Below, one piece after another: positions 13,757 through 57,549 of a stretch of 64,000 nucleotides of DNA. A program made the translations under genes and the position numbers. The number at the start of each line of letters is the position of its first letter. Positions within the stretch are counted from its first letter, which is position 1. The DNA is from Nitrospirota bacterium (GTDB lineage Bacteria; Nitrospirota; UBA9217): NCBI GenBank assembly GCA_963796285.1, contig CAWCKW010000012.1, positions 1,824,001 through 1,888,000 on the forward strand, given 5' to 3'. The notes under the pieces are model-generated. The model was not told where the DNA came from and did not search any database. It was given only the letters and a program-made list of their open reading frames with translations.

Positions 13757-13770
<14 letters not shown>

Positions 13771-16144
13771 AAGATCCCTGCGGAAGCGTAACAGTCACGA
13801 CGGTCCCGATGTCCTTCTTGCTTTCTATGGCAATGGTGCCGTTCATCCTGGTGATCATTTTCTTGACGATAACGAGCCCGAGACCCGTCCCGGTCGCCTT
13901 GGTCGTGTAAAAGGGTTTGAACAGGTCCTTCACCTTGTCCTCCGGGATCCCGCATCCATTGTCTTCCACCTGGATGAGGACCATGTCGTCCGGCCTGGAG
14001 ATGCGCATGGCGATCTTCGGATGGTCGCGTTCTCGAACAGCATCGGTGGCATTGGTGATAAGGTTCAGCAGCACCTGTTGCAGCGCCCGCGGATCGGCAT
14101 ACAACCGGTCCGCCTGCGGGTCCATCTTGACTTCGAACGCGATGTCCTTTTTCTGGAAGCCGTCTTTCACGAGCGGCAGGAATTGTTCCATGAATGACGT
14201 CATCATCAGAGTCTGCGGTTCCTGGGTCTCGTACATGTTGAAGCTCTTGAGCGAGCTCAAAAGAAATTCCACACGCCCGATCTGGCCCGCGATCCGGTCC
14301 AGATAGTCCCTGATCGCATCCTTGGTCAAGTCCGGCAGTTTGTAGCTCAGGATGCCCAGGATCATATTGACCGCGTTGATGGGGTTCCCGATCTCGTGCC
14401 GGACACTGGAAAAAATATAGCCGATGCTGTCCATGGTACTGACCGACTCGGCAATGGCCTCGAGCCGGAGTTTCTCGGTGATGTCCCTTTTCAGGGAAAC
14501 ATAATTCAGGATCTCTCCCGAAGGGCCCTTCACCGGAGATATCGTGCACTCTTCGTAGTACAGGGTCCCGTCTTTCTTCTTACTGACCATCTGTCCCCGC
14601 CAGACTCCGTCACGCAGCATCGTTTCCCTGAGCTCCTGGTAGAACTGAATGCCCTGCTTGCCGCTGTCCAGCACGTGCAGCTTGCGGCCAAGCAACTCAT
14701 CCTTCGTATACCCCGTTAACTGCTCGAATGCCGGGTTCACATACTGGATCAAGCCCAGCGACGGCTCGGTGATGACAACCCCCTCGGGCGTGGATTCCAC
14801 GGCGGAAGCCAGCCGCGCTCGTTCTTCCTCAATGCTGAACCGGTAGACCGCCTCGCCGATGATATGCCCCAGATGTTCAAGGAATTCCACGTTTTTGAGC
14901 GGCGCCAGGCCTTCCCGCTGATCGGCAAGATGGATCGCCCCAAGCGGCTGGCCCCGGTATCGGATGGGGATGACGGCAAGGGATTTGAAACCATTCTTCA
15001 TGCACGTGCCGCGATAGTGCCTCTTCTCATCATCGGCCAGATTTTCAACGAACTGAAGCGAATTATTGGAATAGAACGAACCGTTCATTGTCAGGGAGGG
15101 AAGGTCCGAAGACTCCGGCATTCCCGCTACGATCCGCGTACAGATGCAATGGTCCCCGGCCAGCGACAGCTCGTTCTCCTGCTTCAGAAACGCCTCGCCA
15201 TACCCCTCGCACGCCTCGAACGGCGCCTTCTTGTCCGGAAGTGCGATCCGCACCCCGACACTGCGGCAGCCGCTCCAGTCGCTCAGCAGACCGCAGACGG
15301 CCTCCAGATATTCCTTGCGCGTGATCTTGAAGGTAAACAGCTTGAGGAGCGCGTTCATGATGTCCGTGCGCTTTTGGGTGTCCCTTCGCTCGGTGATGTC
15401 GCGCGCGATGATGCTGAGCATGGGGTTGCCTTCCCTGTCCCGAAACAGGACAGAGGATATTTCACAAGGGACCGCCGTTCCATCCTTTCTGATAACATCA
15501 ACCTCGCCGCGGGTCCTTCCGGTTCGCTCACGCTCGGTGATCAGGGATGCGACGTAAGGGTCCGCCTGATTGACAATGGCTGATCTGCCCGCCCGGCAGA
15601 TCTCCTCCTCGGTCATGTCGAGCAGATGACGGGCAGCCGGGTTCGCCGACACAATGGTCCCATCGGGTTTCATGAGGACAATAGCATCAAGACTGGAGTC
15701 AAACAGCCGGTGGTATTGTTCCTCGCTCGCCCGCAGCTCTTCCTCGGCCTTCCTGCGCGCACGGCGCGTGCCGGCTTCGCGCAGTTCCCGTTCCACCGCG
15801 GGAACGAGCCTGGATAGATTGCCTTTGATGATATAATCGTGGGCGCCCGCCTTCATCGCCTCCACGGCGATGTCCTCGCCGATATTGCCCGACACGATGA
15901 TGAACGGCAGGTCCAGTCCGCTGTCCTTGAGAACGGCCAGGGCATCGAGTCCGCTGAACGTGGGAAGGACGTAATCCGAGATGACGATGTCCCATTCCCG
16001 GTTCGCGAGCGCGGAGCGCATGGCTTCAGGCGTCTCGACGCGTTCATGGGCCGGATCATAGCCGGCGCGCCGCAGTTCCCGCAGCAGGAGCAGACAGTCT
16101 TCCTCGTAATCCTCTACGATCAGTATGTTAAGAGGCTTGGTCAT
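13757..16144 (-). CDS. Receiver-PAS-GAF-PAS histidine kinase
   Basis: Start MTKPLNILIVED; SDYVLP receiver, PAS, Cys-rich GAF, PAS, RHEIGNP H-box, NLITNA, DNGCG, GTGLGL. Confidence 0.88.
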
Positions 16145-16152
16145 ATGTTGAG

Positions 16153-16246
16153 AAGTTGCAGGTTTCAAGTTTCAAGTTTAAGGTTCCAAGTCTCGGGTTT
16201 GCAAACTTGAGACTTGAGACTGTTTTTATTCTGAGACTTGAGACTA
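16153..16246. repeat. Inverted heptamer array (AAGTTTC-like x7, GAGACTT-like x5), no cargo
   Basis: aagttgc aggtttc aagtttc aagttta aggttcc aagtctc gggtttg | caaactt gagactt gagactg ... gagactt gagacta; fills the spacer between a stop and the next start. Confidence 0.85.
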
Positions 16247-16248
16247 TT

Positions 16249-16680
16249 TTACGGCGATTCATTCAACACCAGCCAGTACAGCCCCAGCTGGTTTACGGCT
16301 TCGGCGAACGAGTTGAAGTCCACGGGTTTTCTGACGTAGCTGTTCGCGCCAAAATGGTAGCTTTCGACGCGGTCCCGGTCCTCGCTCGACGTGGTCAGAA
16401 CAACAACGGGCAAAAGCTTCGTCCGCTCGTCTTTGCGTATGCGCTGAAGCGTCTCGAGGCCGTCCATCCTGGGCATCTTGAGGTCCAGCAGCACTACCTG
16501 GGGCAGGACCTTCGTATCGCGGCCCGCGTACTTGCCGGTCCCAAACAGGTACTCCAGTGCCTCAACCCCGTCCTGCGCGACCACCACCTCATTCATGATC
16601 TTGCTTTTCTTGAGGGCCCGGAGCGTGAGCTGCACGTCGTCGGGATTGTCCTCGGCTAAGAGAATGACTTTTGTCTTCAT
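16249..16680 (-). CDS. Single-domain response regulator (Rcp1-like)
   Basis: ILLAEDNPDD, LLDLKMPRMDG, VLTTS, ANSYVRKPVDF; GGAGG RBS. Confidence 0.9.
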   Translation of the reverse strand: MKTKVILLAEDNPDDVQLTLRALKKSKIMNEVVVAQDGVEALEYLFGTGKYAGRDTKVLPQVVLLDLKMPRMDGLETLQRIRKDERTKLLPVVVLTTSSEDRDRVESYHFGANSYVRKPVDFNSFAEAVNQLGLYWLVLNESP

Positions 16681-16708
16681 GAGACCTCCGTGAATAGTTT
16701 TCACTTGT

Positions 16709-16743
16709 AAGTCGCAGGTTTCAGGTTTCAAGTTTCAGATTGG
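16709..16743. repeat. Heptamer arm (AGGTTTC/AAGTTTC) flanking four-helix-bundle gene 1
   Basis: aagtcgc aggtttc aggtttc aagtttc aga; a degenerate inverted arm (gagactt, gaagcct, caacctt, gaaacag) lies at about 17191-17255. Confidence 0.7.
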
Positions 16744-16764
16744 AGAAACAGTTGATAGTGTCAC

Positions 16765-17173
16765 TTTTCACATATTGACCTCCACATCGCACCTGAAGAA
16801 CCCAAAGGGATATGAGTCATGAATCCACTGATCATTTTACAGGATTTCGAGACGTATTCACTTGTGAGCAATCTTTCAAAGTCTCTTTATCTAGATATTC
16901 TTGATCAACGGCTATATAAAGTTGAGCTTCACTCATCCCGAGCTGAACCTTTTGCTATCGACAGAAATTGTCCGAGTATCACCGTTTCCGCACCGTTCAA
17001 AACTCTGCGATATTCGACATAACTGACGAACTTGCATTGCGTATCTGATCGCGAAGCCTGAAATCTTTTGAGATACAAGACCCCTTGCTCGGTAATGCAT
17101 AAATATCCTTGCGTCTCTTCACGGTGATTTCTGCCAGGCGTTGATTTCTTCAAATCTCTGATAATGTCGCCAT
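16765..17173 (-). pseudogene. Four-helix-bundle (23S rRNA IVP family) protein 1, multiply frameshifted
   Basis: GAGGAG RBS and ATG at 17173. Stitching frames gives MAT-YQRFEEINAWQKS...KDIYA...SKDFRLRDQIRNASSSVMSNIAE-FER.GNG...QFLSIAKGS...QLYIAVDQEYLD...KMISGFM. AT-rich; 3' end approximate. Confidence 0.75.
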
Positions 17174-17258
17174 GTCTTCTCCTCTAATTTGAGACTTTAA
17201 ATCACGCAGGCTGAAGCCTGAGCTACCAATTGACAACCTTTGCAGCTTGAAACAGTCT

Positions 17259-20200
17259 TTACCCCAGCGTAAAATAGACCGTCGTTCCCTTGTCCGTTTC
17301 GCTTTCGATCCACACCCGGCCGCCGTGGCGGTTGATAATGCGCTTGACCGTGGCAAGGCCGATGCCGGTGCCGGGAAATTCCTCGATCTTGTGCAGCCGC
17401 TGGAAGGGGCTGAACAGCTTGCCCGCATAGGCCATGTCGAACCCCACGCCGTTGTCTTTCACATAGAATGCTTCGGCATTCTCCCTGTGGGCGACGCCGA
17501 ATTGTATCACACTCCGGCTTGCTTTTTCACTAAATTTCCATGCATTGGAGAACAGGTTCTCAAGCGCCACGGTCAGGAGGCGGGCGTCACCGTATGCGGT
17601 AAGGCCGTCGGCAATGTCGAATTCCGCGGACCGCTCGGGGTGGCTTTCCGCGAGCCTTCCCGCAACGTCCTTCGCGATGACGCTCAGGTCGACACGTTCG
17701 CGGTTCATTTCGCTTCGGGTGACGCGGGAAAGTTTGAGGAGATCGTCAATGAGGTGCCCCATCCGCACGGTGGCATTCCGGACGCGGTCAAGGTAGCTTT
17801 TGCCCGTATCGTCCAGCTTGTCCACATAATCTTCGAGAAGGGCGAGGCTGAAACCCTCGATGCTCCGGAGCGGGGAGCGGAGGTCGTGGGACACCGAGTA
17901 CGCGAAGGCCTCCAGTTCCTTGTTCATGCTCTCAAGCTCGGTCGTGCGTTCGATCACGCGCGCCTCGAGCTCCTGGTTGAGCTTTTGGATTTCCTCCTCG
18001 GCCTGCTTGCGCTCGACTATTTTCCAGACCGAATCCATCAAGAGCGTCATTTGGTTGGAGTCGCTGTGCGTGTACTCCGCGGACCTGTTGGCAAAGCCTA
18101 CAACCGCAACGATGCGGCCTTCGCTGAAAACAGGGACACTGAAGAAGCGAAGCAATGGCGCGTGGCCTTCCGGATAGCCCTTCTTCAAGGGATGCGGAGC
18201 GGCAAAATCATTTACGATGATGGGCGTGCGCTGCCTGACCACTTCGCCCCAGATGCCGGTTTTTTCGAGCTTGTAATCTGTCTGCGGGTTGGCGATCGTG
18301 CATTCAGCCATCACGTCCTTTGACCAGGCGTGAAGGATAAAATCCTGAGTATCTTCACGGTAGAAATAGAGATAGCCGAACTTGCTGCCGGAAAGAGCGA
18401 TCGCCTCGTCAAGCGCAAAATCCAGCAGCTCCCGCATCGATGCCGCGGGATATTGCGAAATCCTTAAAATACTTTCGGTGCGCGCCTCGTCCTGCCTCGC
18501 GATGTCTTCCGCCTTCTTGCGCTCGGTGATGTCGCGGGCGGCGGCGAACACGCCGATGACGTTCCCCGACTCGTCGCGGTAAACCGCAGCGTTGTACAGC
18601 ACGGGGGTAAGATGTCCGTCCTTGTGCCGGAGTTCGAGGTCGTAGTCCTTGACCGAGCTTTCACGGAACACCTGCTGATACCCCGCGCGCGCTTTTTCCG
18701 GGTCCGTGAAATAGTCGGAGAAATCGGTGCCGATCAGTTCTTCGCGGGACCGGCCTGTCACGGTTTCCGTGGCAACGTTCACGTCAGTGATCTTGCCGTT
18801 CGCGTTAATGGTCACCAGCGGGTCGAGGCTGGCTTCGAGCAGACTGCGGTTGTAGACATTGGCCAGCCGAATGGCTTCCGCCTGCTTGCGCTCGGTAATG
18901 TCCCGGAAGGCGCCGATGACCTTTACGACCCTGCTGTCCTCGCGGATGGCCTTGCCCACGGCTTCCACCCAGATCAAGCGGCCCTTGGCCGTGACCAGCT
19001 GCAGTTCCAGGGAGAAATCCTTCCCCTGCTCGATGGCCTCCTTGACCGCGGCACTGATGAGCGGCACACTCTCGGGCGCGTAGAAGTCAATGGCCGTTTC
19101 CACCGTCGGCGAGAACTCAGCCGGCGACGTTTCGTGGATCCGGTAGGTTTCCTCGGTCCAGTAGAGGGTGTTCTTAACCAGGTCCAGTTCCCACCCGCCT
19201 ACGCGGGCGATGGCCTGGGTTTCATCGAGCAGGGTGGCCGTTCGCTGCAATTCCTCATTCGTCTTCTTGCGTTCGTCGATCTCTTTTTCGAGATCAGCAT
19301 GGGATTCGCGCAATTTTTCCGTCATCGTATTGAACGAGCTGGAAAGCCCGGCGAATTCATCTTGTGCGCCATTTCCGACCCGGTGGCTCAGGTCGCCCGC
19401 GGCAATGGCTTCCGCGCCTTTTTGCAGGGACAGTATCGGTCCGGTAACCGTTCTGGAGATCGCCAGCGCCGCAAGTGCCCCGAAAAACACTATAAAGATA
19501 CCGATGGAGATCACGAGAATCAGCAGCTTCCGGACAGGGGCGAATGCTTCCGATGCATCGATCTTTGTAACCAGCCCCCACCGCAAAAAGGGAATATAGC
19601 GCCACGAACCCAGCACCTCGTTGCCGCTATAATCATACGTAATGCCTGAACCGTTTTCTCCCTGGGCCGCTTTTATCGCCGGGACCCCTATCTGTTTCCT
19701 GCAAAGAAACGACCTTTTTTAATGCCGCGTTCGGATCATGCCGCAGGGGACTCAAAAATAATATCTGGTCCCCTTCCTTTCTGGCAATCAACGCTTCCCC
19801 GGTTGTTCCCAGGCCGGTGGTGTCCTGGATAAATTTGAAAATGGGGACCATATCAATTTCAATGGCGACCGTGCCAATGAAAGCGCCTTGCAGGTCGCGT
19901 ACCGGAGCGATCCCGATCATTTCAGCGCGCCGGTCCTCTTCCATGCCGAAAAAGACATCGGTAAAATAGATTCCTTTTTTGCCTTCCTCAAAGAACGTCC
20001 TGTTTTGAAAAGGTTTGCCCAGTTGAGCGGCGGAGTGCTCGTTATTGCTGGCGTAAACGACCGTTCCCCGCGCGTCCGTGAGCATCACATCCAGATATCC
20101 AGAGGCCTGCTGAAACGTCTTGAGCTGATCGTCCAGGTCTTTCTTGGCCTTCACATATGCGGGGTCGGTACTATCGCGCTGCCGCGCGTTCAAAACAGGA

Positions 20201-20430
20201 AGGTTGCGCCTGATGTTACGGAAATCCTGGGCCGAGCTGAGGTCGGCCTGCCGCTCCTGAAAAAACGCCTCGATCTTGTCTTTCTTGAAGTCCGCGCTGT
20301 TGTTCAGCTGCGCCATACGGACTGTCTTCAAGATGTCCTTTGCGCGCGAAAAGACAAGAGAGCCGAACAGGACAAGCGGGACCAGCGTGAAGGCCATCAA
20401 TAAGATAATCAGTTTTGTTTTAATCGGCAT
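17259..20430 (-). CDS. Cache-HAMP-PAS-PAS-GAF sensor histidine kinase (frameshift near 19680)
   Basis: 19633-20430 gives a TM helix and Cache-like periplasmic domain. 17259-19616 gives TM, HAMP, PAS x2, GAF, YSVSHDLRSPL, DNGVGF, GTGIGL. Confidence 0.85.
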
Positions 20431-20449
20431 GAGTTAATCCTCAAAAAAT

Positions 20450-20545
20450 AAGTCTCAAGTTTCAGGTCTCAGGTTTCGGGTTTCAGGTTTCAGATTTCAA
20501 GCCTTTGTTCGTAACTTGAGACTGTAAACATGAGACTTGAGACTA
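20450..20545. repeat. Inverted heptamer array (AAGTTTC family), no cargo
   Basis: aagtctc aagtttc aggtctc aggtttc gggtttc aggtttc agatttc aagcctt ... taactt gagactg taaacat gagactt gagacta. Confidence 0.85.
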
Positions 20546-20977
20546 AATCCACCTTTCCAGCTCATTCCGTATATGCTTCGTGAATTGGTCCAGGTCCACG
20601 GACTTGTTCAGAAAACTGTTCGCCCCGTTTTTATAGGAGCTGCCTTGTCCGATTCGAGGTCCGAGTGCGTAACAATGATCACGGGTATCGGGCGGAGGCG
20701 TTCATCAGACCGGATCTCGCGCAGGACGTCGAGTCCATCCATGCCCGGCATTTTCAGGTCAAGCAGGATCAGCGAGGCAGCGCGCATCTCCGCCCGGAGG
20801 AACGCCAGGCCCACCTGGCCGCTCGGGGCGGATTCAACCTTGAGGTGTCCCGGCTGATTTTCGTCAGGACCATTTTCGTCGAGCAGGATATCGTCTTCAC
20901 TGTCGTCGATGATGAGGACGCATTTGTTGCGGATTGCGGATTACGGAATTTTATCGGATTGCGGACTTATTCGTCAT
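20543..20977 (-). CDS. Single-domain response regulator, frameshifted
   Basis: KCVLIIDDSEDD...LILLDLKMPGMDG...VIIVTHS...GANSFLNKSVDLDQF across frames; TTGCGGA heptamers sit at its 5' end. Confidence 0.7.
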
Positions 20978-21432
20978 TGCGGAAAGCGGGAATGCATGCG
21001 GCAGTTTATGAAGCTGTCATTATTGTTCATTTACATTGTCCTTGTTGCCGTTTTGATCGATGAAACTGTGATTGCCAGCAACTCGTCGGCTTCCTTCATG
21101 AGATCTGCTGCATTTGGTGATATTACAATGCCGGAATCTATCAATAGCTCCATCCAATAGATGGATTCATCAGCCTCTTCCTCCATGAATGCCCATTTTC
21201 GCTATAAAATCCGCTGAAGAACGCGCCCTGCATGCCGCCCGATAATTATGCTCCAACCGATGTCCCTGATCGTAATCAATTGTCTTCCAAGAATATCCGC
21301 TGTCTTTCCTTTGGGAGCGATTAAACGCAAATTGAATCACATTCCGAAGCAAATTTCTTCGTCCGTTTTCTCAGATCGTCCTTGTTCACATTCTTCTCCG
21401 CTTTTCATTCCGCAATCCGAAGATCCGCAATT
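20926..21432. mobile_element. TTGCGGA/TCCGCAA heptamer-bounded cassette carrying four-helix-bundle gene 2
   Basis: ttgcgga ttgcgga ttacgga ... tcgga ttgcgga on the left; ttccgcaa tccgaaga tccgcaa on the right, in inverted orientation around the gene. Mobility is inferred. Confidence 0.55.
21031..21389 (-). pseudogene. Four-helix-bundle (23S rRNA IVP family) protein 2, multiply frameshifted
   Basis: GGAG RBS and GTG start. Stitched: MNKDDLRKRTKKFA...PKGKTADILGRQL.RSGTSVGA-NYRAACRARSSADFIAKMGI-EEEADESIYWMELLIDSG...LMKEADELLAITVSSIKT. Confidence 0.8.
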
Positions 21433-21444
21433 GAACCAATCGCA

Positions 21445-24400
21445 TCATCCCAGCGTGAAAAATACCGTCGCGCCCTTCCCGACTTCTCCCTCGGCCCAGA
21501 CCTTCCCGCCGTGCCTTCGGATGATCCGGTCGACGATGGTGAGGCCTATGCCCGTGCCATCGAAACTCATTTTCCAAATGCAGCCGCTGAAAGGGCCGAA
21601 CATCTTGTCCGAGAAGGCCGGATCGAACCCCGCGCCGTTGTCCCTGACAAAGTATACACACTCGGTTCCCTCTCCGTGTTCGAGGCTGCCGAACTCGATC
21701 CTGGCTTCTCCGTTTCGAGGTGAACTTCCACGCGTTGTCGATCAGGTTTGTCAGGACGACCCTCATCAGGTTCGGGTCGGCAGAGGCCCTGATGCCTTGC
21801 TCATCAGGACCTCAACATTTCTGCCGTGGTCCGTCTCGCGCAGGTTATGGATTGCGGCTTCGGCCATTTTGCTCAGATCGACATCCATGCGGTCGAGTTC
21901 CTGGCGAGATAGCTTTGAAAGGTGCAGGAGGTCGTTGATAAGCTGGGTCATCTTTATCGAACCGTTGAATATGCGTGTCAGATAATCCTTTGCCTGGTCG
22001 TCCAGCTTGTCCGCGTAATCCTCCTGCATGATTTTTGCAAAGCCGGACATGGTCCGAAGGGGCGCTCGCAGGTCGTGCGATACGGAGTAGATAAAGGCCT
22101 CGATTTCTTTGTTCAGCGTCTCAAGCTCCAGGTTCCTGGTCGCCATGTCTTCGGAGAGTTTCAAGAGGTCCTCTTCGGCCTTCTTGCGCTCGGTGATATC
22201 GAAAAACACCACGGCGAAGCGGCCGGGCTCGGTCCGGTAGGCGCTGACCTCGAACCATTTATCGAGGGGGCCGAAGCGTTCTTCGAAATGCGCGGGCTCT
22301 CCCGTGAGAACTACCTGTCCGTACCGCTCGAACCAGACTGGCTCGGCCTTCGGGGAACAGCTCGTGAACTGTTCGGCCGACGATGTCCCCGGACTTCAAT
22401 CCCGTTTGCTGCTCGAACGCCGGGTTGACCGATAGATAGCGGAGATCGACGGGCTTCCCTGCGTCATCCAGGATGATCTCATCGAGCGAGAAGCCTTCGG
22501 TCATCGTCTCGAAGAGTGTCCGGAAACGGTTCTCACTCTCGCGCAACGCCTCCTCGGCCTGCTTCAGCGCGGAGATGTCGGTATTAGTGCCGAACCACCG
22601 AAGGACATTGCCGGCCGAATCCTTCAATGGCAGCACACGCGTCAGGAAGGCGCGGAAAATCCCATCGGCCCCGCGCAGCGGGAATTCCATTTCAAACGGC
22701 TCACCGGTGGCGATCGACGCCTGCCATCGTTCCAGAACCTTCGGCAACGCCTCCGGGTCGTGAACCGATTGCCAGCCCCAACCCTCCATCTGTTCCGGGG
22801 TTGTGCCGGTGTACTCATACCAGCGCCGGTTGTACCACGTGATGTAACCGTCCGCGTTGGCCCACCACGCCAGGTTGGGAATGGAATTGGCCAGGGTGCG
22901 GAACTGCTCTTCGCTTTTCCGCAGCGCCTCCTCGGCCTGTTTTTGAGCAGCTCGTATCCGCAGGATTTCAATACCGTACGCCACGTTATCAGTGAGTTCG
23001 GTCAATAATCTGATCTCGTCTTCGGTGAATGGGTCGGCCTCTTTGGAATACATGGTGATCGCGCCGAAAACCCTGCCATTAGCTCGCAGCGGAAAAACGA
23101 TCGAGGACGCGTAGCCGCGCTTGATCGCTTCTTCGCGCCACGGCGCGAAGGCCGGATCGGTCAGCATATTCCGGCATACGGCAACGTTGCCCATGCGGAT
23201 GGCCGCGCCCGTCGGCCCCCGGCCCCGTTCCGTATCGGCCCAGGTAAGTTTCAACGTTTCAAGATATCCTTCTTCGAATCCTGAGTATGCTGCGGGCCGG
23301 ACCGATTTCGTGTCGTCATTTTCCGCAAATCCGATCCAGACCATGCTGTAGCCACAGTCGTATACGATTATCCTGCAAACGTCGTTCAGGTATTCTGGTT
23401 CGTCCTTTGCTCGGATTACTGCCTGGCTGCTGTCACTCAAAGCCTTGAGCGTCTTGTTCAATCTGAGCAGCGCCTCCTCTGCCCTCTTGCGTTCCGTGAT
23501 GTCAATGTTAACGCCGGTCATGCGAAGCGGCTTGCCTTCGGAGTCCTTGAAGACCCGCCAGCGTCCGGCCACCCAGTGGATGCTGTCATCGGGCCAGATG
23601 ACGCGCCATTCTCCCTCTGTTGGCTCGCCCGTCTCAATGGCTCGAGCATTCAGCCGCATGACCTCGGCACGGTCCTCGGGATGAACAAGATTCTCGAAGG
23701 CCGGCTGCGTTCTGCCGAATTCGCCTGGCTGCAGGCCGTACATCGCCTCCAGCTCCGGTGTCCAGGTGTTCACTCCTGCCTGGACGTTCCACTCGAACGT
23801 ACCGATGTGCGCCACCTGCTGCGCAAGACTCAACCGCGCCTCGCTTTCCCGAAGCGCCTCCTCCGCCCGCTTGCGCTCGGTGATGTCGCTCAGGTTGCCG
23901 CTGCGGTACAGCGGCCGACCGGCGCTGTCTTTGGAAAGGGCCATATGATTGAACAGCCAGCGGTAATCTCCCCCCTTGGTCCGCTGGCGGTACTCCACAT
24001 CTCCCTCGCCGGTCTCCAAAAGACGTTCATGCGCCGCCCGGACCGCGGGCAGATCATCGGGGTGGATCATGGTCAGGACCGTATCGAGCTCGAGCGTCAT
24101 TAATTCGTTTGCTGAAAAACCGGTTACTTTCTCAACCGACGGGCTCATGTACTCGTAACGGCCGGTTTGCACGTTCAGTCGGTAAATAACATCAAGAGAA
24201 TTGTCCAGCACGGACCGGAAGCGCTCTTTGCTCTCCCGGAGCGTTTGTTCGGCCTGCTTGCGCTCGGTGATGTCACCGACAGTACCGACCAAGCTCACTG
24301 CCCGCTTGTCCGCGCCTTCGCCCTCGAAGGTGGCGATGCCATGAGCTTCTATCCATCGCAGTGCGCCGTCCGGACGGTTGATCCGATACTCCGCGGCGTA

Positions 24401-29238: not shown

Positions 29239-29366
29239 AAATTCCAAATTACAAATTCCAAATAATATCCAAATTCAAAATATCAATACTCGAAACTCGT
29301 TTTAGTTATTCGGTCATTCGTGCTTGAAATTTATTCGTTATTTGATGCTTGGGATTTAGTGCTTTT
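29239..29366. repeat. Degenerate AT-rich inverted heptamer array (AAATTCC family)
   Basis: aaattcc aaattac aaattcc aaata...caaattc aaaatat ... ttgaaattt ... ttgggattt, between actA and actB. Confidence 0.55.
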
Positions 29367-53730: not shown

Positions 53731-53781
<51 letters not shown>

Positions 53782-55084
53782 TTACGAATACGCCACCTGC
53801 CTCAGCAATCGCTCAAAACCGGGGAACGATGTGTCGATCCATTCCGTATCATGCACAATAGTATTTCCGCTTGCGGCGAGCCCTGCCACGGCCACGGACA
53901 TGGCGATTCGATGGTCCCCATGGCTGTCACAGTGTGTTCCCATGAGCGTGTCTTTACCGATGATTTCCATCCCGTCAGGAAGCTCCGTCACTGCCGCGCC
54001 CATCTTGCGGAGCTCTGCAGCCATGGTCGCGATCCGGTCAGACTCCTTCACCCTGAGTTCAGCGGCGTCCTTGATGACAGTTTTCCCTTCCGCATAGGAC
54101 GCGGCCACGGCCAACACCGGGAGCTCATCAATGGCACGGGGGATCATCTCCCCACCGATCTGAAACCCATGAAGTTTCCGGTGCCGCACCCGGATATCGG
54201 CCACTGGTTCGCCTGCCTGCTCTCGCTGGTTCTCCTGCGTGATGTCCGCGCCCATTCCGACGAGGACGTCGATGACGCCCGTGCGCGTAGCATTTACTCC
54301 CACGTTTTTTATGAGCAGGTCCGAGCCCGGCACAATGGAAGCGGCGACCATGAAGAACGCGGCCGACGATATATCGGACGGGATATTGAGCGATCCTTTG
54401 GCGCGCAGCCGCTGTCTCCCTTTCAGCATCACCCTGTTCCCCCGTTCCCCGACCTCCACGCCGAAGAACCGGAGCATGCGCTCGGTGTGGTCACGGGACT
54501 TGGACGGTTCGTTCACCGTGGTATCGCCATGGGCATATAAACCGGCAAGAAGGATCGCCGACTTGACCTGAGCGCTTGCAACGGGACTGACATACTCGAT
54601 GGCCTGAAGGGTTTTTCCCCCACCCCTGATGGAGAGCGGCGCAAGCGTACCGTGGGAGCGGCCGTCGATCCTCGCACCCATGCGTTGGAGCGGCTCAACG
54701 ATCCTTGCCATGGGACGCTTTCTCAGATACTGGTCGCCGGTAAGCACGGAGAAAAAATCCTGTCCCGCAAGCAGACCCGCGATGAGCCTCATTCCGGTTC
54801 CCGCATTACCAAGATCGAGCACCCCCGCGGGCTCCGAAAGACCGTCAAGCCCCTTGCCATGCACAACGAGGCGTGCTGTCCCCAGACCCTCGATTGCGAT
54901 GCCCATTGCCTGCATTGCCTTTCGCCGTGTTCTGCGTGTCTTCTCCGGTCAGGAATCCGGTAATGTGAGTATCGCCATCTGCAAGAGCGGCAAACATCAC
55001 TGACCGGTGGGAGATCGATTTATCTCCGGGCAGGGAAAGCTCACCCCGGAGTCCGCTCGACGGTTGTATGTGGAGATCGGCCAT
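53782..55084 (-). CDS. aroA: EPSP synthase (frameshift near 54920)
   Basis: PGDKSISHR in 54845-55084; [36 protein letters not shown] in 53782-54915. Confidence 0.92.
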
Positions 55085-57420: not shown

Positions 57421-57549
57421 ATTTCGGATTGCGGATTTCGGATTGAAAACCTTTAAACCCGTAAATCCCCATTCCGCAATCTGCAATCTAAAATCCGCAA
57501 TGCCTTATGTTTACCATTATTCCGCAATCCGCAATCCGAAATCCGCAAT
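57421..57549. repeat. Inverted heptamer array (TTGCGGA/TCCGCAA family), no cargo
   Basis: tttcgga ttgcgga tttcgga ttg ... tccgcaa tctgcaa tctaaaa tccgcaa ... tccgcaa tccgcaa tccgaaa tccgcaa, between pheA and hisC. Confidence 0.85.

Follow-up and report, generated by a model that had tools for sequence, protein, structure and literature searches.

The closest described counterparts of the element discussed here are the intervening sequences (IVSs) of 23S rRNA that bear an open reading frame (ORF), reportedly described in Leptospira by Ralph and McClelland in 1993. We compare them with small, AT-rich cassettes – each a gene of the PF05635 four-helix-bundle family between inverted arrays of a single 7-base word – and with matching gene-less hairpins, in a stretch of 64,000 nucleotides from a Nitrospirota bacterium (assembly GCA_963796285.1, contig CAWCKW010000012.1, positions 1,824,001 to 1,888,000 of the forward strand; hereafter the window). 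The window contains two decaying copies of the cassette, together with three or more gene-less hairpins that belong to the two heptamer families of these copies.

In the available part of the account of the Coxiella burnetii IVS (PMC4990558), a PF05635-type ORF, S23p, lies in the loop of a stem formed by terminal inverted repeats and is preceded by tandem GACAGAT heptamers (three, in variable number), at the first of which RNase III cuts the stem; the element is sporadic, lower in GC content than its surroundings, and its ORF is decaying. The window cassettes likewise have a stem of terminal inverted repeats around an S23p-type ORF. They differ in location – both lie between kinase and response-regulator genes of a protein-coding operon, not in helix 25 or 45 of 23S rRNA – and also in that their arms are multi-unit arrays and that gene-less copies far outnumber filled ones. 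The element may work like an ORF-bearing 23S rRNA IVS but, given where it sits, is not one.

A second group of relatives are the intergenic heptamer repeats, among them the short tandemly repeated repetitive (STRR) sequences of cyanobacteria. GGGAATC forms 186 intergenic arrays in Xanthomonas, with 70 convergent pairs (PMC4692102, in part), and TAACTGA repeats occur in Beggiatoaceae, cyanobacteria and Bacteroidetes (PMC4679880, in part). Like them, the arrays of this genome are tandem, 7-base and intergenic, often form inverted, convergent pairs capable of folding into stem-loops, have a polarity relative to neighbouring genes, and are unexplained. What differs here is the coexistence of many unit families, tied to a gene by adjacency and co-occurrence; the available parts of the two papers (PMC4692102, PMC4679880) make no mention of S23, intervening sequences or helix bundles. 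Apart from the three heptamers inside the Coxiella IVS, we found no literature linking this gene family to heptamer repeats generally.

The four-helix-bundle family is also related to Avd, according to the available part of PMC10053308, and has been encountered in cas operons, where 18 cases – for example, between cmr3 and cmr2 – were read as possible Cas-associated functions (PMC3936711, in part). There too the same family is wedged in an unrelated operon, and the available part of that paper describes no surrounding repeats. The element described below explains the presence of PF05635 genes inside unrelated operons such as cas loci.

Cassettes and gene-less hairpins in a signalling operon

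The region is spanned by a minus-strand signalling operon, four of whose junctions carry heptamer arrays according to Tandem Repeats Finder (TRF); two of the four also hold a small AT-rich insert. In what follows, G000 denotes this genome, other G numbers its relatives, L numbers individual loci, and J1, J2, J4 and J5 the operon junctions. The features, in the order of transcription, are as follows.

ends at 21445, minus strand: kinase
21405-21432, minus: 5' arm of cassette 2 (J5), ATTGCGG units in sense, TCCGCAA on the plus strand
21031-21389, minus: gene 2, four-helix-bundle pseudogene of a different subfamily from gene 1, spread over three frames
20927-20990, minus: 3' arm of cassette 2; the sense strand reads TCCGCAA units, the plus strand TTGCGGA (TRF)
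20547-20930, minus: response regulator
20450-20545, minus: gene-less hairpin J4, AAGTCTC/GAAACCT family, also present in G004 (TRF)
19633-20430, minus: periplasmic-domain protein
17259-19616, minus: kinase
about 17185-17258, minus: 5' arm of cassette 1 (J2), degraded, with remnants TTGAGACTT and CTTGAAACAG
about 16765-17173, minus: gene 1, a pseudogene of the four-helix-bundle family (PF05635), frameshifted several times and containing in-frame stops
16715-16738, minus: 3' arm of cassette 1, made in sense of GAAACCT / GAAACTT units (TRF and sequence)
16249-16731, minus: response regulator
16153-16246, minus: gene-less hairpin J1, AAGTCTC / GAAACTT units in the sense of the operon (TRF)
13757-16168, minus: hybrid kinase
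following the hybrid kinase, minus: sigma-54 regulator
57421-57549, minus: gene-less hairpin, ATTGCGG family, flanked by two minus-strand genes (TRF)

The initial annotation had proposed two AT-rich four-helix-bundle genes within the operon, each between inverted heptamer arms, and gene-less arrays at 16153-16246, 20450-20545 and 57421-57549 that take up the space from one stop codon to the following start. This description held up. The cassettes have a GC content of 41-45%, compared with 55-62% for the flanking genes, and profile searches matched both genes, multiply frameshifted as they are; the advice in the initial annotation to use frame-corrected sequences had foreseen such breaks. Gene 1 scores 42.8 bits against PF05635 (cut-off 33.8), only when read through three stops; it is spread over three frames. 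For gene 2, it is the C-terminal fragment (the last 51 codons) that matches TIGR02436 at 24.7 bits (cut-off 24), PF05635 alone giving only 13.4 bits; its DNA is 81% identical to the orthologue in G004 and 73.6% to a copy in G003, both of which match the window fragment, the G004 copy matching PF05635 as well. Because of these profile matches and DNA identities, on the one hand, and the splitting of the frames by stops, on the other, genes 1 and 2 are pseudogenes of the four-helix-bundle family, belonging to different subfamilies. Their decay is progressive: G004, at 81-92% DNA identity, has fewer breaks in both genes, and its orthologues match PF05635 with E values of 5.7e-25 and 8.5e-17.

A conserved helix-2 motif of the family, R..S..N..E, is described in the available part of PMC3936711. 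Neither window gene combines an intact reading frame with this motif, both being split over three frames with stops. In gene 1, the second arginine of the QIRR motif is replaced by N (QIRN), and the sequence reads QIRNASSSVMSNIAE, identically in G000 and G004. Base 16933, within gene 1, is missing from contigs of metagenome runs X1 and X4, which is weak evidence.

The inverted arms are clear in cassette 2. Cassette 1 has one clear arm (16715-16738) and a degraded one, the counterpart of which is intact in G004, its closest relative; the degraded 5' arm is split by a palindrome, GCAGGCTGAAGCCTGA, at 17206-17221, and a ribosome-binding site (AGAGGAG) precedes the ATG next to this arm (17185-17258). 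Within the operon, TRF reports period-7 arrays at 16153-16191, 16205-16221, 16715-16738, 20455-20499, 20514-20544 and 20927-20947, and further along the window at 57421-57445, 57476-57501 and 57521-57549.

The gene-less arrays occupy the space that separates one gene's stop codon from the following start: J1 lies between the stop of the response regulator (16249) and the start of the hybrid kinase (16168), and J4 between the stop of a response regulator and the start of the periplasmic-domain gene (20430). Their fold z-scores range from -2.5 to -6.6 (J1: -21.4 kcal/mol with z -2.45 in sense and -39.0 with z -4.96 on the plus strand; J4: sense -29.2 kcal/mol, z -3.6, plus strand -42.0, z -6.6; 57421-57549: sense -45.3, z -4.9). 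A search of the window hairpins and cassettes against Rfam returned sub-threshold matches to microRNA-like hairpins only and no rRNA family.

The same element in other places and other genomes

Comparison of orthologous junctions reveals what became of the same site in different relatives. At J1, between the regulator and the hybrid kinase, gene-less hairpins of AAGTCTC type are present in G000 and G004, diverged arms of GTTCAG type in G005 and G002, next to nothing in G022, and a gene-2-type cassette with GGAATGC arms in G003; G061, which belongs to another genus, has an intact gene-1-type cassette (L072) with AGTCTCA/GAGACTT arms at the very junction where G000 has a gene-less hairpin of the matching heptamer. 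At J2, between kinase and regulator, cassette 1 is found only in G000 and G004, and in G005, G003, G024, G021 and G015 the two genes are about 30 nt apart, with no array in between. At J5, likewise between kinase and regulator, G000 and G004 carry cassette 2, G003 has no array, and G009 has an intact gene-1-type cassette with AGTTTCG arms. A fourth gene-1-type copy lies between a kinase and a CheB-like gene in G042 (L064).

At all these sites (J2, J5, J1 and L064), gene-1-type cassettes have AGTCTCA- or AGTTTCG-type arms. As same-type arms recur at these four sites in different genomes, the arms follow the type of gene, not the junction, and one junction can be empty, gene-less or filled. The gene-less hairpins are kin of the cassettes: they have the heptamer, the polarity and even extended sequence in common – AGTCTCAAGTCTCAAGTTTG is present both in the gene-less hairpin at J1 of G000 and in the 5' hairpin of the gene-1-type cassettes L064 and L072 – and occupy the same junctions. 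In all, 26 gene-less arrays of relatives have an orthologous junction in G000, where 16 correspond to no array, six to the same unit and four to another unit; six further gene-less sites of relatives, with no orthologous junction, were left out of the 26. Metagenome contigs from four runs are mostly fragments of relatives, and one contig of run X1 joins 16700 to 17258 with 18 bases of the heptamer of cassette 1 in between, at a depth of 4.8 – weak evidence.

At the J1 junction of G004 (L020), orthologous to 16153-16246, the array has grown into mixed 7- and 8-base units (AAGGTTC / AAGGTTTC, about 10 copies), so unit length can drift inside one array.

The architecture extends well beyond this operon. 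We collected 91 full-length copies of the family from 61 genomes of the same taxonomic family; a period-7 array (score of at least 12) was present in at least one flank of 57 of them, compared with none at periods 5 and 6 and none in shuffled flanks. Where both arms scored, their units were reverse complements within one mismatch in 18 of 29 cases, versus 5% under shuffled pairing. A multi-phylum sample – including Zixibacteria, Elusimicrobia, Patescibacteria, Bacteroidota, Cyanobacteria, Planctomycetes, Acidobacteria and Proteobacteria – comprised 80 loci, seven of which were dropped because of truncated matches or short flanks. Period-7 arrays accompanied 53 of the 73 usable loci, versus 1, 1, 11, 6 and 1 for periods 5, 6, 8, 9 and 10, and the arms were reverse complements within two mismatches at 38 of 42 loci.

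The layout of an arm, the gene and an inverted arm was found in 67 of 109 cassettes, and a complete hairpin upstream with a third array downstream in about 10, including all three gene-1-type copies (L064, L072 and L028). Deletion between direct repeats was considered as a general origin of gene-less hairpins and rejected, as the A-A'-gene-A' layout that it needs occurs in only about 10 of the 109. The upstream neighbour shares the strand of the cassette in 83 of 88 cases and the downstream neighbour does so in 67 of 85, and ribosome-binding sites precede the ORFs of the cassettes examined. A cassette, in short, is a promoterless PF05635 gene with its own ribosome-binding site and inverted arrays of a single heptamer, placed in sense orientation between the genes of an operon.

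Across G000, as the initial annotation had suggested should be checked, period 7 stands out: 245 arrays, versus 4, 69, 50, 74 and 16 for periods 5, 6, 8, 9 and 10. Stricter scoring leaves 36 period-7 arrays and no more than four of any other period, and TRF at a score of at least 40 gives 117, versus 4, 32 and 41 for periods 6, 8 and 9. Of the 245, 136 are mostly intergenic, in a genome that is 87% coding by rough gene calls. Many unit families coexist (TRF arrays: ATTGCGG 23, CAGGAGT 17, AATTGGA 15 and others). Thirty-five arrays pair as hairpins with loops of up to 200 nt; 23 of these gene-less hairpins lie between co-directional genes, and 21 of the 23 have their purine-rich arm ahead of the other one in the sense strand. 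A search for other cargo between heptamer arms was fruitless, pairs 150-1200 nt apart proving to be ordinary genes flanked by two separate hairpins.

PF05635 matches seven places in G000, corresponding to six genes, to which gene 2 adds a seventh. Period-7 or period-14 arrays (TRF) adjoin six of the seven; the remaining one, at C3:56459, lies between inverted arms of an irregular TTGTCGT word of 7-9 bases. The heptamer unit is different for each of the seven genes, and two half-deleted copies retain a single arm.

One of the intact cassettes of this genome, L001 (G000:C12:142759-143073), sits between a selA-like gene and a gene starting MKYIILGTAGHIDHG, probably selB. The last 13 codons of the selA-like gene (QTTEDRAQTTDKP) are encoded by the heptamer array itself.

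The presence of arrays also tracks that of the gene family among genomes. The two abundant heptamer families, ATTGCGG and CAGGAGT, were counted in the 61 genomes as three tandem units with up to three mismatches. The median number of hits was 119 in the 47 genomes with PF05635 and five in the 14 without a match, and at least 25 hits were found in 36 of the 47 versus one of the 14. Patterns reversed as controls gave 0-3 hits for ATTGCGG and 0-3 for CAGGAGT, except for nine in G006 and 17 in G073. Within-genus contrasts in g12 and g33 agree with the link, and so does an unbiased period-7 scan of sampled DNA, with three arrays in 637 kb from seven genomes without the gene versus 38 in 800 kb from seven genomes with it. 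With one exception, discussed below, arrays are abundant only in genomes that carry the gene family; cassettes and gene-less hairpins depend, directly or historically, on its presence.

Finally, the unit is coupled to the protein. The share of pairs with the same unit (up to one mismatch, in any rotation) rises with protein identity, from 1-5% below 60% identity to 19-20% at 60-70%, 50-67% at 70-80% and 79-100% above 80%. The Mantel correlation between unit and protein, -0.18, was reached in none of 2000 permutations, and the trend persists among pairs in different genomic contexts. Among 84 pairs with at least 65% protein identity, 76 differ at 50% or more of their fourfold sites, and 41 of these 76 – including 18 of 37 in different contexts – have a unit in common, compared with about 3% as background; the unit is conserved, therefore, well beyond divergence at fourfold sites. 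The intact genes themselves are under strong purifying selection (median ratio of nonsynonymous to synonymous divergence, dN/dS, of 0.067 in the 32 of 102 close pairs with a finite dS, the other 70 being saturated), yet copies often decay.

Weighing the explanations

Taken together, these findings make us lean towards IVS-type hairpin cassettes, with gene-less derivatives, at operon junctions as the overall explanation of the window. That cassettes and gene-less hairpins form one class of element, in which the gene and its arms are gained and lost as a unit, is likely. What is new here is the series of states at the same junction, with a gene-less hairpin homologous to the hairpin of a cassette at that junction in another genus; the polarity of gene-less hairpins; the conservation of the unit at fourfold divergence of 50% or more; and the co-occurrence at genome level, with Y1 transposase as a rejected rival.

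The broader proposals of the initial annotation fared unevenly. Its prediction of presence/absence variation was borne out by array-free, gene-less and filled states at orthologous junctions; altogether, a profile match, an association of heptamer with protein clade and variation among junctions were all found. The pairing of each protein subfamily with its own heptamer stands insofar as unit sharing increases with identity, with the limit that it does so among close relatives only. The notion of one element class gains from the co-occurrence in 61 genomes and from the G061 cassette at the gene-less J1, and is tempered by abundant heptamer families that lack an intact cognate gene. Insertion at gene junctions would agree with the varying states seen there.

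Several observations weigh against the explanation that we favour. No movement or mobilising enzyme was seen, the four-helix-bundle gene being the only ORF in the cassettes, and the comparison of filled and array-free states of J2 revealed no target duplication. Intact PF05635 copies occupy only two of the seven places in G000 (117 and 124 residues) and carry rare heptamers, not those of the abundant gene-less families; ATTGCGG, with its 23 arrays, has the dead gene 2 as its sole gene, and CAGGAGT, with 17, has none. The members of one heptamer family share the unit only, not the whole sequence, and their loops are unrelated, so they are not recent copy-and-paste products. Gene-less arrays had been expected to lose their unit faster than cassettes; this expectation failed, as the unit is kept at six of ten orthologous junctions, about as often as in cassettes (41/76), and conservation of the unit therefore does not require an adjacent gene. 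As gene-less hairpins conserve it about equally well, the cause may instead be concerted evolution under a stem constraint, or a trans-acting factor.

Nor are the statistical links free of difficulty. The pairing of unit and protein is seen only among close relatives, where co-inheritance could explain it, and the association of PF05635 with array hits (Mann-Whitney p 6e-5, Spearman rho 0.57) is overstated because the genomes are related. Three genomes depart from it. G016, the only clear exception, combines 332 hits with the absence of a PF05635 match at E of 1e-5 or lower, in an assembly of 490 contigs, and may reflect either the state of that assembly or a genuine arrays-only lineage; G023 has three PF05635 matches and no hit for the two units tested; and G076 has five matches and no array in the 100 kb sampled. 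At the RNA level, J1 and J4 fold far better in antisense (-39.0 and -42.0 versus -21.4 and -29.2 kcal/mol), the sense strand is the more stable one in only 15 of 23 hairpins genome-wide, and G-U pairs favour it weakly (557 versus 475, in a test whose duplex folding on 150-nt flanks over-pairs, giving mismatched partners -66 kcal/mol versus -87 for a cassette's own arms); a role of the hairpins as RNA is for these reasons not established.

Some of these points would be expected if the hairpins were elements of the host – serving mRNA processing, stabilisation or translation control, and arising and growing in place by replication slippage and template switching – with the genes as unrelated passengers lodged in them. 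This would suit the excess of 245 arrays over seven gene places, the major families without an intact cognate, the retention of the unit without a gene (6/10), the polarity that follows transcription in 21 of 23 hairpins, and a one-armed, Shine-Dalgarno-like AGGAGTC array upstream of a start codon. We nonetheless regard it as quite unlikely: genes at non-orthologous junctions bring arms of the matching heptamer with them, 13 of the 14 genomes without the gene family have array numbers close to background, the within-genus contrasts in g12 and g33 included, and period 7 itself is left without an explanation.

Y1 enzymes act on DNA hairpins, and the coexistence of many short gene-less palindromes with a few gene-carrying ones at operon junctions recalls MITEs (miniature inverted-repeat transposable elements) alongside their autonomous transposons, as well as repetitive extragenic palindromic (REP) sequences and bacterial interspersed mosaic elements (BIMEs) with their REP-associated tyrosine transposases (RAYTs). 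Two Y1_Tnp genes in G000, and a separate palindrome, GCAGGCTGAAGCCTGC, at junctions, might speak for elements of REP/BIME or IS200/IS605 kind that a Y1 (RAYT/TnpA) transposase mobilises. That is very improbable, as Y1_Tnp occurs in 12 of the 14 array-poor genomes (23 in G050 and 10 in G057, for instance) and was not found in the array-rich G004, G022, G063, G044 and G072: arrays without Y1_Tnp and Y1_Tnp without arrays both exist. The cassettes differ from MITEs, too, in having no transposase, no target duplication and only the 7-base unit, rather than full-length similarity, in common.

Remoter still is the idea that the genes are remnants of diversity-generating retroelements (DGRs), that is, Avd without a reverse transcriptase. 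The likeness to Avd is that of a related four-helix-bundle sequence, with five chains in solved relatives and weak matches to bAvd PF22296 (16.6-22.8 bits) and DivGenRetAVD NF033474 (20-27 bits), far under the respective cut-offs of 40 and 80; no PF05635 place lies within 580 kb of the sole reverse transcriptase of the genome, at C12:725044, and heptamer arrays, rather than template or variable repeats, make up the flanks. An artefact of assembly, or chance, is almost certainly not the answer, for although the assemblies are metagenome-style, and repeats may interrupt contigs or join them wrongly, this architecture recurs in independent multi-phylum assemblies and in G004 at 81-92% identity, and period 7 is specifically enriched over low reversed-pattern controls (G006 and G073 being the exceptions for CAGGAGT).

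Returning to the IVS-type cassette, we can sketch only tentatively, and with considerable doubt, how it might work. Since cassettes are co-oriented with their neighbours and promoterless, they would be transcribed together with the host operon; the arms would then pair as a long stem like that of a 23S rRNA IVS, forming a substrate of RNase III, which this genome encodes. The protein would be a pentameric nucleic-acid-binding factor of the element, acting on the heptamer arrays, as suggested by the five chains per entry in the solved relatives 2gsc and 2rld and by the kinship with Avd; the title of a structure paper on Xcc0516 is likewise said to speak of five four-helix bundles. Spread without a transposase could proceed when a filled and a gene-less hairpin of matching heptamer undergo recombination or gene conversion – homology-driven exchange is favoured because no transposase is present and insertion preserves orientation – and the gene might be lost by deletion between directly repeated arrays, where the layout has them.

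A wider proposal, which we consider unlikely, is that PF05635 pentamers bind heptamer repeats and that protein and arrays constitute a transposase-free class of mobile elements. The protein would then recognise, maintain or seed arrays of its own 7-base word, and the arrays would supply the homology for copying the gene into, or losing it from, hairpins situated at operon junctions and in 23S rRNA. Were this true, one system would explain rRNA intervening sequences, heptamer repeats (STRR, GGGAATC, TAACTGA) and a very large protein family. The comparison made here ties together three separately described puzzles – ORF-bearing 23S IVSs, over-abundant intergenic heptamers and the function of PF05635 – and offers a concrete candidate ligand for the protein family, namely its own heptamer array. 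If the favoured explanation is right, a hidden layer of selfish or regulatory hairpins would exist at operon junctions in many phyla, and such hairpins could split, stabilise or silence polycistronic mRNAs.

Further arrays and a second palindrome

Other parts of the window and genome contain arrays of less usual form. A short AAATTCC/AAATTAC heptamer array occupies an AT-rich intergenic stretch at 29239-29263 of the window; its family is unlinked to the four-helix-bundle genes of this genome. The one-armed AGGAGTC array mentioned above, at 53731-53782 on the minus strand, is a direct array of six Shine-Dalgarno-like units without an inverted partner. It occupies the interval from a TAA stop to the following gene's ATG (MKKNGLVIAIDGPSG…) and lies some 30 nt upstream of this start codon. 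Outside the window, at G000:C12:1358436-1358604, an inverted ATTGCGG/AATGCGG hairpin, whose loop measures about 110 nt, is embedded in a long MutL-like open frame and is apparently translated in frame within a linker (…FGMRNAEYPISPQWKGGMRNPLSLQEW…IRIPHSEM…).

A second small palindromic repeat, GCAGGCT(G/T)(A/C)AGCCTGC, is also found at gene junctions. One copy has landed within the 5' arm of cassette 1 (17206-17221), and others are present at G000:C12:111760, 971912 and 992875 and at the J2 junction of G022. At two orthologous junctions, a heptamer array in G005 is matched in G000 by this palindrome instead.

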